Part shown: positions 1 to 48,000 of the stretch, piece by piece
Layout of the letters: each line of letters begins with the position of its first letter
Position numbering within the stretch: the stretch's first letter is position 1
NCBI GenBank assembly: GCA_963695335.1
Contig: OY968764.1
Coordinates: 960,001-1,024,000, forward strand
Source of the DNA: an uncultured bacterium
GTDB lineage: Bacteria; Babelota; Babeliae; Babelales; Vermiphilaceae
Reading direction: 5' to 3'
Length of the DNA: 64,000 bases
Program-made: the position numbers

Positions 1-3000
1 GAAAAACATCGAAAGACATAAGATTGCTTCATCAATTTCTCCTTTTTTTATAAAAAATAGTTATTTTGAGCATTAAAATTTATTTAAACAAAAAAAAGAT
101 TGTAAATTCAATGGTTTTTTTGTTTAAATAAATCAAATTACTACGTTGTTATTTTTTTAAAAAAGGATCTGTATGTTGTATGTACGCATTTCTAATTTTT
201 TATTTTTATTCTTATTAATCTCATTGTTTATGCAACCATTACAAGCTCAATTGCCTGATATATTATATGTTCATCTTGAAAAAGATATAAACAATATTGA
301 GAATGTTATTGTTCAAATTATTAAGTTAGATCAACAAGATAATTCTATTTTGCATGCATTCAAAGATTACATCTCTCAAGGGTTTTTTATTGCAGAAAAT
401 AAAGATGTTCTTGCTGTTCTGGAATACGCAACATCTGTTTTGCAACGTAACTCTCATAAATTAAATTACGAAAAAGTGGTACAGTTGTATGATGATATTG
501 CAGCTTTGAAAGATCGAATTATTAATGGAGATTTAGAAATTAATCCTGAATCATTAGAAACAACTAAAGTCTTAAGATTAATGTATCGAGAAAATAATAT
601 ACCGAATTTTTTGAATGCTTTCATTATAAATAGAAACTTAGATGTTCTTGGTAAAACTACGCTCAGAAAACATCTTCTTACAAAACAAGGTGCTCATATA
701 GAGGGAAAACTTAAAGTTGGTAAACATGCTAAATTTAAAGATGATGTAACATTTAAGAAAAATGTGAATATTGATGGCACTCTTTCAACGGATAATTTAG
801 TAGTCACTAATTGTATTGATGATTTGTGTGTTAATAATCTTTCAGTTGTTGATTTAATTGTTAGTGGAACAGTGACTGGTATCACTGGTGGCTTTGGTAA
901 TACTGGAGCAACTGGTGCTACTGGTGCAACGGGCGTCACAGGCGCGGGGGTAACAGGTGCAACTGGTAATACAGGTGCAACCGGTGCAGTTGGTCCTACT
1001 GGACCTGGCGCAGGAGCAACAGGTAATACTGGAGCTACAGGATCTACTGGAACAACTGGATTTACAGGTGCTACTGGACCTACAGGCGCGACTGGCGCAG
1101 GAGCAACAGGTGCAACCGGAGTAACGGGATCTACAGGAAATACTGGGGCAACAGGCGTAACAGGCGTCACTGGGGCAGGAGTAACGGGCCCAACTGGATC
1201 AACAGGTGTAACTGGAAATACTGGTGTAACAGGTAACACAGGAGCTACTGGTGCAACAGGTGCAGGTACAACTGGAAATACCGGTTCAACAGGTGCAACG
1301 GGTGCAACTGGTTCAATCTCTTCAGTTGTTGCACAATTAACAGTAACTGGAACTTTATCTGTAAATGATGCGATAATAACAACACTTACTGTTCCTAGTT
1401 TTACAACAGCTGGTGTTGTCCATAATGATGCTTCAGGAAATTTATCAAGTTCATTAATCGTTAATGCTGATGTTGATCCAAACGCATCAATTATTGACAC
1501 AAAATTGGCAACAATTGCTACTCCTGGTAAAGTTGCTAATTCTGCAACAAGTGCAACAAGTGTTAATACCCCAAGTACTATAGTATTACGTGATGTTAAT
1601 GGTAATTTTTCAGCTAATACAGTCAGTTTTAATGATGCAGTGATAGGAAGTCTGACTATTACAACACCAATAACAAATATAACTATTAATGCACTATCGG
1701 TAGTTAATGAAACAATTAGTGGTACATTATCGGTTCAAAATGAAGTTATTAATGGACCACTACAATTAACAACACTAACTCCAGCGGGAGTTTTGCATAA
1801 TGATGCATCAGGAAATATTACCAGTTCATTAATTGTTAATGCTGATATTGCTGCAAACGCTGGTATATCCAATGGTAAATTAGCAACTCTTACTGCTGCT
1901 GGATTAGTTGCCAATTCTGCTACGACAGCAACCAATGCTAATACAGCAAATGCAATTGTTGCACGTGATGCATCAGGCAATTTCTCAGCAGGTACAATCA
2001 CTGCCAGCTTAAATGGTAACGCAACAACTGCAACAACAGCTACTAATTTTTCTGGATCATTAAGTGGTGATGTTACCGGCATACAAAGTGCAACAGTGGT
2101 TAGCTTTGTTGGTGGACAAACTGCTGCCAATGTTGCTGCAGCAACGGTTCTTGCTAATAATGCCACCAATCTCGATACAGTGAACACCATAGTCAAACGA
2201 GATAGTAATGGTAATTTTGCAGCTTCAATCATCAGCATGACTGATGGTGTTCATAGTGGAAACTTAGTTTTAAGCATTGCAACTTCTACTTCAACAACAG
2301 GCAATATTATAAAAGGTTCAAATAGATTTATTCATAACTTTGGAACGAACAATACGTTTGTTGGTATTAATGCAGGTAATTTTACAACGAGTGGTCCAGG
2401 TGGAAACAGTGCATTAGGAGTGAATGCTTTAACAATAAATAGCTCTGGATCATATAATACGGCTGTTGGATATCAAACGCTTACTGCAAATACTATTGGT
2501 GTTGATAATACCGCTGTTGGATATAATGCCCTTGCAGTAAATACAACAGGTACTGATAATACCGCAATTGGTTATAACGCACTTGCTGCAAATGCAACAG
2601 GAACAAGTTTTAATACTGCGATTGGTAGTAGTGCATTAGCGGCAAATACGACTGGTTTAAATAATACGGCAGTTGGTTATCAGGCATTATCAACGAATAT
2701 AACTGGTTCAAATAATATTGCTCTTGGTTATCAATCAGGAAGTACTCTTACTACAGGTAGTGATAATATCTATATAAATGCTCCTGCAGGATCAGCGAGT
2801 GAAAGCAATACAACACGCATTGGTACATCACAAACAGCTTGTTTTGTTTCAGGAATTAATGGAACAGGAATATCAGGTGATGCAGTATCAATCAATAGCA
2901 ATGGACAGCTTGGTATTACATTTTCTTCGCGTAGATTTAAACACGATATAGAAGATATGGGAGATTTTTCAGAAAATATATTAAAACTGCGCCCTGTTAC

Positions 3001-45000: not shown

Positions 45001-48000
45001 CTTGCACAATACCATTTAATTTTTGCACTTCATTGAGAAGTAACATAGGTAATAAATGATAGCGTACAGTGTATGGTGTGCCTTCTTCATCGCGGATAAC
45101 TAATGCAGGGAATACTTGATCAACTTCTTCAGCAATTAAACCATACTGTTTTGTTTCTGTTGCATCGCTATTATACACAAAGGTTACAGGATGCAAGTTG
45201 TATATATTTTCTGAATCAACATAGTCCATATCTTCTATGTTATGTTTGAATCTTTGTGAAGAAACAACCGTTCCTAATTGACCCGCTGCATCAACAAACA
45301 CTGGTATACCAGTACCGCCAACAACACTTGTGAACACACCTTGTAAAAATGCTGCTGTATGAGTAGCAGTTGTACCAATACGTATAATACCACTTTCAGT
45401 TGCAACACCAGGATTTGATATATAAATGTTATCATCACCAACTGTCAAACTCACTCCAGCGTTAAATCCAACAATAACATTCGTATCACCGGTTGCTGCA
45501 AATGCTGCTGCATTGTTTCCTACGAAAACGTTATTGAGTCCTGTTGAACTAAATCCTGCCTGGAATCCAACTGCCACATTACCAGAACCAACTATATTAG
45601 ATGCTAATGTAAAGCCACCAAGCGCGGTATTTTCATTACCTGTTGTGTTTGATGTTAAAGCAAATGCACCCACTGCTACGTTATTTTCTCCAATAGTATT
45701 GCCTGGTAAAGCAAATCCACCAACCGCTACGTTTTCAAAACCTGTTGTGTTTGAAGATAATGCTTGACGTCCAATACCCACGTTTTCAGCACCAGTTGTG
45801 GTAAAATTACCAGCATTTATACCAACAAAGGTGTTATCAGTTCCAAAATTATGAATAAATCTGATACCACCCTTAAGAACGTTACCGATAAGAGGACTTA
45901 TTGAGTTATTCATAAGAAGATTACAACCAACAATCACGTCACACGCACTGATTGTTCCACCAGAGATTTCACCTACTGATAAGTTATCAATAGAAGCATC
46001 TACCGCAGAAAAATTGATAACGCAAAGATTTTCTATGCAATCATTAACAACTAAATCATTAACGGATAATGAATCAATAGAAGCATCAACTGCCGAAAAA
46101 TCGATAACACAAAGACTATCAAGACAGCTTGCAATAATAATGTCACCTACAGACAAATTATCAATCGTTGCATTAACTGCTGATAAATTAATCACACAAA
46201 GATTTTCCATACAACTATTTACAACTAACTCATTAACCGATAACGAACCAATAAATGCATCAGTTGCTGATAGATTAACAACACAAAGACTATCAATACA
46301 ACTTAAAACAATAATCTCTCCTATAGATAAATTATCGATAACAGCATTAACTGCTGATAAATTCTCAACACATAAATTGTCTATACAGCTGTTTACTACT
46401 AATTCATTAACCGATAATGAATTAATAAATGCATCAGTTGCGGATAAGTTAGTAACGCAAAGGTTATCAATACAGCTAAGAACTGTTAGATCTGTAACAG
46501 ACAAGTTAGTGACACAAAGATTTTCCACACAGCTCAATATAATTATATCAGTGACAGTTAAATTATTTACACAAAGATGATCAAGACAACTACCAATAGG
46601 AAAAATAATATCAATAACCGTTAATTCATTCACACAAAGATTATCAATACAACTCAGTACTACTAAATCAGATACCGTTAATGTACCTTCTATAGTAACA
46701 TCTTCTTCAAATTCAACATCATCTTTAAACTTAACTTCATCATAAAACTTAACATCATCTTTAAATTTAACCTTATTCAAAAATTCAACTTTTTGTCTTA
46801 TTTTAATCAACTTACATTGTCTTACAGGGCAACAATGATCAGATTCTGTTGTAAAGCATTGTCTAATAATTCTAGCATCTTCAACAATAGAAGGGTCTCC
46901 TAAAGCTGAAGGTAAATCTAAAGCCTCAATAATTTTTTGTGAATCAACGGTAAGTTGTTCATTAACAACTTTATTAACTACCTCTTCAAGAGATTGAGAA
47001 AGATCTTGCGCTTCTTGAGCATCCATTCTTAAATAATTTTCTTGTAACACAGTTTCAGCGTAACCCAAAACTTCTATAACAAAATCATACAATCCAACCG
47101 AAAAATCTTCTTCAATATTGTTTTTCAATTCATGCACTAAAGATTCTTGATTCTCATCAAATTCACTAATAGCAGACACTACTTTGTATAAATCGCTAAC
47201 ATCTTTCCCGATATAAATATATTTCATACCACTAGCTTCTAACAGCTCACGTAATTCTGTATCTGAAATATACGCTTCATCTTTTGTAATCGCTTGCATG
47301 TGAAGCGAAAAAAACAAAAGTCCAACGTGTAAAAACAGGCGATGGACTCGATTAAACCGAAGATTTTTCATATAATCCCTTTTTTGTTAAAAAAACAGTT
47401 TTCTACATTAAGAAAGACTCCTTTGACATAACAAAAGGGAAAGATTAGTGTCAACATTTTGTTCGTTAATATTTTTTTATATTATAAAAAAAAGTTCCGA
47501 ATCTTTTTCCGCTCGTGGAGAGGATCCTATTTTTGTAACAAACTATTCTGATTACTCGACCACAATCCACACAGAGTAACAGCTAATGCATCAGTGACGT
47601 CTTCTTTTTTTGGCACTTCCATTCCAGGAAACAGTTGCAATATAACACGTGCAACCTGATCTTTTGTTGCCCCGCCAAAGCCAGTAACAGATTGTTTAAC
47701 TTCTGTAGGCGCAAACTCGCAAATAGTCGTTTTATACTTATGTGCAAGAAGATATAAAATACCTCGTAAATAACCAAGCTTTAAAAAATTTTGAGCATTT
47801 TTACCTAAGAATGGTGTTTCCAGTGCTATCACCGTAACACCATGAATGACAATTTTTTCTTCAAAAAAATTATAAAACTCTCCAACACGAATAACAAGAC
47901 TATCGGATGATGACATGGTAAGACAACCATAATCAAGAAGAAGGGCTTGACGCCCTTCTTTTTTTAAAATTCCAAATCCAGCAAACCGAAACCCTGGATC

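Follow-up and report, generated by a model that had tools for sequence, protein, structure and literature searches.

Fibre genes around a dif-like site

The stretch of DNA analysed here (the window) comprises 64,000 nt from the genome of an uncultured bacterium of the family Vermiphilaceae; its phylum is that given in the survey, with which the present results agree. Seven complete open reading frames for fibre proteins were found in it, and the start of an eighth leaves it on the left side (Table 1). In all seven, a Peptidase_S74 domain (S74) is detected above the Pfam cut-off near the C-terminus. A search of the whole genome (1,366,684 bp; the assembly is 94% complete with about 6% of marker genes missing) for Peptidase_S74 yielded 13 such genes, as stated in the survey's finding, and a profile of the family together with tblastn confined them to the same three loci. 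Counted from the first start codons, the proteins sum to 21,927 aa; the genes occupy 65,820 nt or 4.82% of the genome, which agrees with the 4.8% given before. A hydrophobic N-terminal segment, recognized by hydropathy only, is present in 13 of 13 genes, as had also been claimed, and all of the proteins probably carry a signal peptide. RBS-like sites precede the eight fibre starts that were inspected; for the fibre of about 1,950 aa, the site AAAAAAGGG lies in front of the likely start at 3372.

Table 1. Features of the window. Positions count from contig position 960,001 unless marked genome; signal peptides are putative. N-module, common helical N-terminal module; S74 + coil, C-terminal chaperone domain with its coil.
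Feature	Position	Strand	Remarks
Start of 1,407-aa fibre gene, first 12 codons	1..35 (genome 955,812-960,035)	-	runs leftwards beyond the window
Fibre, 1,042 aa	173..3301	+	signal peptide, N-module 218-571, then Lys-rich segment
1,042-aa fibre, middle	896-1318	+	interrupted collagen, then phage-fibre-like shaft
1,042-aa fibre, tip	2924-3298	+	S74 + coil, Ser918/Lys923; 6 NTAVG-type repeats in front
Fibre, about 1,950 aa	3372..9224	+	frame open from 3294; signal peptide, without N-module
About 1,950-aa fibre, beta-helix	3879-5501	+	one right-handed unit, then shaft repeats
About 1,950-aa fibre, S74 + coil	8853-9221	+	
Fibre, 3,261 aa	9406..19191	+	signal peptide, short acidic segment with Arg57 at its end
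3,261-aa fibre, beta-helix	10021-11646	+	one unit, then shaft
3,261-aa fibre, repeats	14482-18618	+	62 NTAVG-type in three blocks
3,261-aa fibre, S74 + coil	18808-19188	+	
Fibre, 5,365 aa	19303..35400	+	signal peptide, N-module 19387-19755, Arg153, short collagen
5,365-aa fibre, beta-helices	20407-22029, 22414-24039, 24424-26040, 26425-28050	+	four units, then long shaft
5,365-aa fibre, S74 + coil	35059-35397	+	
Fibre, 786 aa	35555..37915	+	signal peptide, N-module 35621-35983, Arg149
786-aa fibre, repeats	36326-37438	+	22 NTAVG-type
786-aa fibre, S74 + coil	37631-37912	+	Ser693; residues 456-786 modelled as trimer
349-aa protein	38131..39180	+	signal-peptide-like start, no Pfam match; adjoins dif-like site
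dif-like site	39170..39197	-	
Fibre, 1,801 aa	39347..44752	-	signal peptide, N-module 44674-44300, Cys-rich beta repeats; linker without Arg
1,801-aa fibre, repeats	39998-43399	-	60 NTAVG-type
1,801-aa fibre, S74 + coil	39350-39745	-	
Fibre, 818 aa	44915..47371	-	signal peptide, N-module 47290-46916, Lys-rich segment, 8-9 Cys-rich repeats
818-aa fibre, C-terminal part	44918-45262	-	S74 + coil; 4 NTAVG-type repeats in front

Self-matches of at least 150 nt within the fibre DNA numbered 167, and the best 70 of these 167 are 63-91% identical. Since the repeat blocks share only this degree of identity, and since open frames of 6,614-7,403 codons are present in three other genomes, an assembly artefact is an improbable source of the giant genes. 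Contigs from four DNA runs of a single study, among which the source sample may be included, were short and shallow and bridged nothing; no RNA run was listed for this sequence.

The fibre genes converge from either side on the dif-like site, and the main cluster straddles it. The maximum of the GC skew is located near window position 36,000. Neighbours of the fibre genes are ruvC, htrA-like genes, dnaB, cysS and an amidase gene, and the GC content of the region resembles that of the genome. An IS transposase gene adjoins the third locus. The gene for the 349-aa protein was considered as a dedicated partner of the fibres and rejected: it is present in 23 of 41 genomes, some of them without S74, and in one genome (G023) it is distant from the fibre cluster. 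The protein occurs throughout the order and is not specific to fibres.

Genes of this kind could belong to a prophage, a tailocin or a contractile injection system as tail-fibre genes, or represent their decaying remnants. Parts of the proteins have matches among phage families of tail fibres, tailspikes and virion proteins (the repeats, PHROG tailspike and virion families), a transposase is a neighbour of one locus, and dif regions draw in mobile DNA. However, profile searches of the 94% complete assembly for phage sheath, baseplate J and terminase detected none, whereas controls were positive in 3, 3, and 5 of 14 genomes, respectively. The signal-peptide-like starts, the neighbouring genes, the GC content and the maintenance of the family throughout the genus also argue against such an origin, and a search of viral contigs with one N-terminal query, albeit a weak search, brought up no relative. 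This explanation is largely refuted and appears highly improbable to us. The layout of phage fibres in a chromosomal setting without phage genes, as described earlier, was supported.

Modular architecture of the fibres

A common N-terminal module of about 200 aa had been proposed for at least nine of the genes. A common module does exist, in 10 of 13 genes, but it consists of a helical domain of about 110 aa (N-module), behind which a Lys-rich beta segment forms a unit of its own; in three genes it is missing from the N-terminus. The predicted structure is a helical bundle (pLDDT 82). No Pfam family matched more than two of 43 members, the protein atlas gave no match, and Foldseek against the PDB gave nothing at E≤0.001. 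The best Z score in VIA-align, 5.5, is inside the usual range for helical bundles. The N-module is a helical domain without known family, and blank look-ups are no proof of a new fold.

N-modules were found only in Babeliales, where they are also present on collagen fibres without S74; 11 S74 genes read from another genus, nine with the start in view, gave no match. Given these genes and the three in this genome that lack it at the N-terminus, the survey's conserved anchor is one candidate reading of the N-module. Four of 61 long N-module proteins carry other, non-S74 tips, as judged by eye. One bridging protein is matched by the profiles of both the N-module and the N-domain of collagen fibres (E 3e-11 and 4e-10), with reversed decoys at E≥0.98 or without match. 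Direct profile-profile comparison of the two domains is weak (probability 0.4-2.4%), and their homology therefore rests on the bridging protein. The idea that the N-module serves secretion in general found no support, as a merged profile, run on 2,038 ORFs, matched no genes other than those of fibre type (next E 0.05).

The mosaic shafts combine NTAVG repeats of 17 residues with runs of collagen and with beta-helices like those of tailspikes, six in all. Up to 54 NTAVG copies per gene had been reported; the highest count is 42 for the exact motif, 53 for NTA[VIL]G and 66 when the pattern is loosened. Among 367 spacings measured, 253 are 17 residues, 53 are 16, and none is 14. The collagen G-X-Y runs noted before are present but interrupted, the longest unbroken one comprising 23 triplets. 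All six beta-helix units are contained in three of the 13 genes. The beta-helix model, in which residues 435-597 are below pLDDT 50, has 48 matches in the PDB at E≤0.001 (best 3.6e-6) to tailspikes and polysaccharide enzymes, lyases and glucanases among them. These matches are at the level of the fold only (TM by query ≤0.40, identity 8-15%). Model and fold matches support a right-handed parallel beta-helix, and invariant acidic residues are present in the alignment.

At the C-terminal side, all 13 fibres have NTAVG repeats, one conserved neck and S74. The catalytic dyad, a check left open by the survey, is intact as Ser-x4-Lys in all 13 S74 domains, the motif being S[ST]xxxK and not SDxxxK, and in all 55 S74 domains read from relatives (loci L013-L032). 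By analogy to Bd3182 (S782; PMC10769870), the dyad is expected to cleave off the C-terminal part. That every fibre ends in the same module holds for the S74 match but not for the 636-aa gene of the third locus, which extends past the S74 coil by about 75 aa matching the N-module (E 2.7e-5).

The C-terminal 331 aa of the 786-aa fibre (residues 456-786) are predicted to form a trimer, with a score of 0.96 versus 0.00 for the best control; this part of one protein lends support to the trimeric fibre suggested earlier. The mark applied was attained by 20 of 30 solved homo-pairs and one of 23 single chains. The model has a pLDDT of at least 95, runs share at least 97% of the contacts, and contacts repeat every 17 residues along the NTAVG-type repeats. 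The score may reflect likeness to solved S74 trimers, given a profile match to 6F45, a chain of a phage long tail fibre (E 0.0047); with phmmer, no PDB sequence was matched by the 786-aa protein. Nearest neighbours of S74 agree in only 14 of 38 proteins. An exchange of S74 domains among paralogues, suggested by trees and nearest neighbours, was not significant, as common ancestry was not rejected (p-AU 0.164, 18 of 38 rows).

Distribution and proposed role

The fibre family is present throughout the genus with 1-17 S74 matches per genome, and orthologous lineages are retained across species over long spans. Of 151 genomes from the order, no more than 35 gave an S74 match; a universal entry device is therefore not what the fibres represent. 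At least 7,839 relatives are known of the half consisting of repeats and S74; the names of some come from Bacteroidota, and one is a Babeliaceae record. Novelty in kind was not supported, because this half is common and chromosomal S74 fibres with signal peptides have been published for Bdellovibrio (PMC10769870).

Available passages of PMC6561590, PMC4776705 and PMC12172432 leave host recognition and entry of Dependentiae (Babelota) unexplained. Infection can be strain-specific, one relative infecting one host strain and not another (passages of PMC6561590). Published passages on two cultured relatives do not mention fibres, and those on Babela report that no pili were seen. We consider it probable that the fibres constitute a secreted, homotrimeric surface repertoire for contact with protist hosts and work like the MAT (mosaic adhesive trimer) adhesins of Bdellovibrio. 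Surface display and attachment to the host are part of this working hypothesis; through such contact the bacterium could be taken up, survive in the food vacuole or leave it, or dock within the cell. Since all 13 proteins end alike, a reading of 'one tip, one host' is weakened.

Export would begin with the signal peptide and Sec, as the hydrophobic starts suggest. The C-terminal coil and S74 would align three chains and the shaft would zip up, in keeping with the predicted trimer and, for the order of folding, with the S74 literature. The Ser-Lys dyad may then remove the last 94-132 aa, or 185 in the 636-aa gene, if cleavage proceeds as in Bd3182. Judging from genome content, the folded trimer would most likely cross the outer membrane by a type II/secretin route, or else in vesicles: two secretins are encoded, and a profile search of the genome revealed no autotransporter or YadA anchor (no PF03895 match). 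The helical module would tether the fibre to the cell or direct export, possibly with trimming at Arg. NTAVG beta-rolls and beta-helices might offer surfaces for binding, with glycans as the probable ligands, at distances from tens up to a few hundred nm. Duplication, repeat gain and block exchange presumably vary length and surface.

The fibres could instead be a protective or spacing coat of the free particle, protecting it from digestion inside the food vacuole, letting it persist for long or serving as grazer bait, and not specific adhesins. The acidic shafts contain hardly any Arg or Lys (0.85% and 0.76% of 16,908 residues; Arg in the proteome, 3.8%), which would suit protease resistance, although such values are also expected of beta repeats of this kind. 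Variation affecting mostly length and repeat number rather than tip type is also consistent with a coat, as is a relative still infectious after four years at 4°C (passages of PMC6561590). The six beta-helices and the long-kept orthologous lineages, however, fit binding roles. A coat in place of adhesins is judged unlikely, but both can hold.

According to another explanation, the fibres are released, doubly cut (after Arg following the N-module and at the Ser of S74), and work in the vacuole or in the cytoplasm of the host, either as scaffolds or as enzymes that degrade glycans. Neither a lipobox nor a domain for membrane anchoring was found on the fibres, Arg is enriched after the N-module, and three secreted clostripain-family (C11) proteases are encoded, two with His and Asp-x-Cys intact. 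Two C11 protease genes lie at genome 301,253-302,758 and 1,151,126-1,152,391. Lyases and glucanases are among the beta-helix matches, and a published passage describes vesicles shed by a relative within the food vacuole. Against this stand the restriction of beta-helices to three genes, the identification of no catalytic residues, and the occurrence of C11 proteases in 41 of 41 genomes with or without fibres; moreover, the Arg window was picked after the sequences had been viewed, and anchoring failed for 25 of 77 rows. Release appears distinctly unlikely to us.

Because Arg often follows the N-module and clostripain-family proteases are secreted, the N-module may be a removable pro-domain. 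Extending this, it might be a Babeliales-specific export domain and pro-domain on S74 and collagen fibres which steers them to the secretin and is cut at Arg by the order-wide protease, giving two cuts per fibre, with the repertoire setting the protist strains that can be infected. The pro-domain reading and its extension are tentative, and we regard them as doubtful. If true, 1-17 S74 matches per genome, frames of more than 7,000 codons and lengths near the cell diameter would determine the infectable strains. A tiny bacterium, of a group living inside single-celled eukaryotes, devotes about 5% of its DNA to fibres, and their genes are concrete candidates for host contact which can be expressed piecewise for binding tests.

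Comparison with known systems

Tailspikes and fibres of phages with S74 (K1F endosialidase, the T5 L-shaped fibre, 6F45; PF13884) share the C-terminal S74 with coil, the beta-helix, fibre-shaft modules and collagen runs. S74 fibres are also known from polinton-like viruses infecting protists (PMC12220804). Unlike both, the genes described here are cellular, with putative signal peptides, a lineage-specific N-module and no virion genes. Trimeric autotransporter adhesins (YadA, BpaC; PMC9543794) likewise stack short Gly-anchored repeats in a trimer, and gain or loss of repeats alters their length. Their left-handed beta-roll has a period of 14, whereas 17 (or 16) is found here, and a chaperone stands at the C-terminus in place of the transporter, the YadA anchor barrel. 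Bacterial 'tail fiber domain-containing proteins' (NTAVG and S74) have the same C-terminal half, but other lineages bear other N-terminal modules; the literature searched held no functional study of them. Lcl of Legionella, a bacterium growing in protists, is trimeric, contains collagen, is secreted by type II and anchored N-terminally (PMC11162425), and thus provides a precedent both for export by type II and for anchoring through an N-terminal helix. It differs by its 30-residue N-helix, a different tip and the lack of S74. The NCBIfam match to Lcl covers the collagen part only, far below the cut-off, and PMC10017501 does not mention Lcl.

Closest in design are the 21 MAT fibres of Bdellovibrio, 13 with S74, divided into S74 and NS74 subgroups (PMC10769870, published 2024); they are self-cleaving and surface-exposed, and one binds glycans. 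One supplementary file of that paper contains no Dependentiae, Babela or TM6. Both families are chromosomal and multigenic in host-dependent bacteria and combine a signal peptide (putative here), a common N-terminal domain, a mosaic shaft that is trimeric (here by prediction), and C-terminal S74 with Ser-x4-Lys. Both also include S74 and non-S74 members with a common N-domain, here by way of the bridging protein and the 4 of 61 proteins with other tips. The MAT N-domain is beta-rich, about 130 aa long and directly follows the signal peptide, whereas the one described here is helical and missing in three of 13, the two being set apart by description. The MAT motif is SDxxxK instead of S[ST]xxxK, and the capping-loop motif V-G-[GN]-x-x-x-P-x-x-x-L, searched with three spacings of the pattern, was found in none of the 13. 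MAT fibres are about 1,000 aa long and carry different tips; the 13 S74 members here do not, reach 5,365 aa (a 7,403-codon frame in a relative), build shafts from 17-residue NTAVG rolls, collagen and right-handed beta-helices, and presumably target a eukaryote. The fibres probably work like MAT fibres but are not members of that family. The overall design is known from Bdellovibrio and the C-terminal half is widespread in bacteria, while the helical N-module is a domain without known family. The genes suggest that a phage chaperone, a mosaic shaft and an N-domain peculiar to the lineage were combined into such a design on more than one occasion, in this case probably directed at eukaryotes.

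Fibre genes and predicted structure

A search of the whole genome revealed 13 S74 matches in three loci, just as the survey's finding had stated. The 13 genes sum to 65,820 nt (4.82% of the genome), in line with the 4.8% claimed, and by hydropathy each protein has the hydrophobic start expected of the proposed signal peptides. Seven genes are complete in the window, all with Peptidase_S74 above cut-off in a Pfam search, and an eighth starts within its first 35 bases. The catalytic dyad, left unchecked before, was detected as S[ST]xxxK in all 13 fibres, 94-132 residues before the C-terminal end in 12 and 185 in the thirteenth, and in 55 of 55 S74 domains read in relatives' loci. 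Since the repeated DNA blocks have diverged in sequence and three other genomes (G009, G010, G022) hold frames of 6,614-7,403 codons, the giant genes are unlikely to result from misassembly. Caution on assembly quality nearby is advised by a frameshifted tRNA-synthetase gene, presumably for IleRS judging from its motifs. Its pieces reflect assembly indels or a pseudogene; the genome contains no close second copy.

Module order varies among the genes. An N-terminal module of about 200 aa had been proposed for at least nine; it is indeed shared, by 10 of 13 N-termini, but is only about 110 aa long. The model of this N-module (pLDDT 82) shows a bundle of helices plus a small sheet, and the module's mean net charge is about -11. 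Further parts are a beta segment rich in Lys, Cys-rich beta repeats or collagen with interruptions, and shaft blocks match phage fibres. Of the three longest genes, two carry one copy each and the third carries four copies of a ~530-aa unit. A right-handed beta-helix is predicted over the first ~430 residues of the unit that were modelled, with fold-level matches to tailspikes, lyases and glucanases. The short NTAVG repeats of shaft and tip are spaced by 17 residues in 253 of 367 cases and by 16 in 53. Neck (conserved), S74 and coil follow in this order at the C-terminus.

Three copies of residues 456-786 of the 786-aa protein were predicted to form a trimer (score 0.96 versus 0.00 for the best control), with contacts repeating every 17 residues, at least 97% of contacts shared between runs and pLDDT of at least 95. 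The score may owe something to resemblance with S74 trimers of known structure, and its mark was calibrated with two copies rather than three; 20 of the 30 solved homo-pairs passed it, as did 1 of the 23 single chains. Scaled from the 55 nm modelled for the 922-aa Bdellovibrio fibre Bd3182 (passages of PMC10769870), the longest fibre would measure ~320 nm. Because beta-helices are more compact, we estimate 150-300 nm, close to the diameter of 350-400 nm given for a cultured relative (excerpt of PMC6561590).

Distribution of fibre modules

With one query, the N-module was found in all ten congeneric genomes besides ours (2-14 matches each) and in none of 30 outside the genus. With a profile, seven of the 151 genomes from the order gave a match, two of them belonging to another family, as did 250 among 1.84 billion representatives. 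A tree of 38 proteins with both N-module and S74 contains lineages common to several species and a four-gene expansion in our genome. Among 61 N-module proteins of at least 300 aa, 36 end in S74. By eye, four of the other 25 carry a different tip that looks complete, and most of the remainder seem truncated. S74 was found in 17 of the 41 genomes searched, and in 35 of 151 from the order. For G023, from another genus, 15 S74 matches were obtained. None of 11 such genes read there matched the N-module, and in nine with starts in view repeats follow the signal peptide almost at once; its fibre run lies far from its dif site. The repeat-plus-S74 half is common: at least 7,839 relatives were recognised among 8,000 candidates scored. 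Their names include Bacteroidota and one 'Candidatus Babeliaceae' record, and the 16 proteins inspected bear other N-termini.

Eight of the ten other genomes in the genus contain relatives of two collagen fibres lacking S74 (L061, L062), and both fibres have the start GPRGxRG in common with four S74 fibres. Direct comparison of their N-domain with the N-module gave a weak result. One stretch of a G122 fibre is matched by both the collagen N-domain profile (13 sequences chosen out of 20 rows; E 4e-10) and the N-module profile (E 3e-11), with reversed decoys at E>=0.98 or silent; on this profile evidence the domains are taken as homologous. A merged profile matched no non-fibre gene in our genome. 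One collagen-fibre tip we take to be BclA/C1q-like; Pfam gave no confirmation.

Features of the fibre loci and other genes (w, window; g, genome)
Feature	Position	Strand	Remark
dif-like site	w 39170-39197		sole match of strict pattern; overlaps end of 349-aa gene
349-aa gene	w 38131-39180	+	signal-peptide-like start
Two HtrA-like protease genes	w 48054-51395	-	tandem, 512 aa; adjoin fibre cluster
Arginine repressor	w 57041-57499	-
Class I tRNA-synthetase	w 58196-61053	-	five frameshifted pieces
Leucine-rich-repeat protein	w 62022-63485	+
Collagen fibre L061	g 2,243-4,600		no S74; signal peptide, helical domain, beta tip
Collagen fibre L062	g 647,097-648,809		no S74; signal peptide, helical domain, beta tip
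Gly-rich 362-aa ORF	g 507,999-509,087	+	long poly-Gly runs; not an S74 fibre
636-aa fibre (L060)	g 1,137,739-1,139,649	-	partial N-module fused behind S74 coil; adjoins IS transposase
Clostripain-family (C11) genes	g 301,253-302,758; 1,144,142-1,145,341; 1,151,126-1,152,391
G023 fibre run	L019-L020		nearly all signal peptide, NTAVG repeats (up to 119), S74
G007 frame	C5:60371-63118		1,323 codons; three S74 matches

Anchor or removable domain

The N-terminus had been regarded as a conserved anchor. This is supported by its position, which equals that of the N-domain in Bdellovibrio mosaic adhesive trimer (MAT) fibres and of the Lcl N-helix, as far as extracts of PMC10769870 and PMC11162425 describe them, but its features also fit a removable domain. 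Removal is suggested by Arg enrichment just before the first shaft strand: Arg lies 4-13 residues ahead in 47 of 52 anchored representatives versus 2-16 in six control windows, the window having been picked after inspection and 25 of 77 rows left out as not anchorable. Unanchored, the signal is milder (75 rows; linker Arg 5.3-5.5% versus 0.5-4.4% elsewhere), and two 10-residue bins contain 19 Thr-Arg pairs versus 0-4 per bin. Distant homologues in G139 and G122, read afterwards, retain the Arg, and Arg153 of the 5,365-aa protein is the only one within residues 26-195; the linker of the 1,801-aa protein has none.

Three clostripain-family genes have signal-peptide-like starts, two encoding His and Asp-x-Cys and one lacking the catalytic Cys; Arg specificity of the family is taken from part of PMC11296011. 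They were detected in 41 of 41 genomes versus 3 of 14 controls and, being present in all 41, are no evidence of a link to the fibres. The partial N-module of the 636-aa fibre would go with the cut-off part, or may be only a fossil fusion. Processing at both ends, with the N-module removed and S74 cut, is a tentative and rather doubtful proposal.

Genomic setting, proposed display and known systems

The main cluster spans both sides of a dif-like site, defined by what we assume to be the dif consensus, and its genes converge on this site, which is close to the skew maximum. The site adjoins the 349-aa gene in 12 of 22 other genomes having that gene, weakly in a thirteenth, an arrangement conserved across the order. 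Fibre genes surround the 349-aa gene in G005, G008, G009 and G010; a dnaB flank was observed in G008 and G009, a recF flank in G009 alone. In our genome dnaN, recF and dnaB are near the terminus, and a gene resembling dnaA is found some 56 kb beyond.

Sheath, baseplate J, terminase, autotransporter and YadA anchor gave matches in control genomes and none in ours. Beyond the claimed absence of phage neighbours, the tail genes sought are thus missing from the genome as a whole, and prophage, phage or eCIS parts, despite the phage-like shafts, are highly improbable. Fibre chains would be exported by Sec, S74 would guide trimer folding and then cleave itself off, and the trimer would leave through secretin machinery or in vesicles for display in host contact. 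Two secretins are encoded, as reported for TM6 genomes (portions of PMC4776705). We consider this sequence of events probable, inferring self-cleavage, export route, display and ligand. Its main weakness is that our S74 members vary in length and shaft, not in tip type, and that most order genomes searched lack S74 fibres. That the fibres form a protective coat is unlikely, and release as processed proteins slightly more so.

Titles and abstract openings on Dependentiae, searched for fibre, adhesin, collagen and S74 outside subscription papers, revealed no paper on such fibres; in the searched text of PMC4776705 and PMC12172432 'fiber' and 'collagen' are absent. The assignment to this phylum comes from the survey's finding, and the results here agree with it. 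The fibres are set apart from trimeric autotransporter adhesins by the missing anchor and by the repeat period of 17 or 16, whereas autotransporter heads have 14 (section of PMC9543794). The closest known system is the MAT family. Its beta-rich N-domain and capping loop, described in PMC10769870 as excerpted, are lacking in the fibres here, which are therefore not filed as members. The fibre family is real, and its design is already known in kind from MAT, which it would resemble in working.
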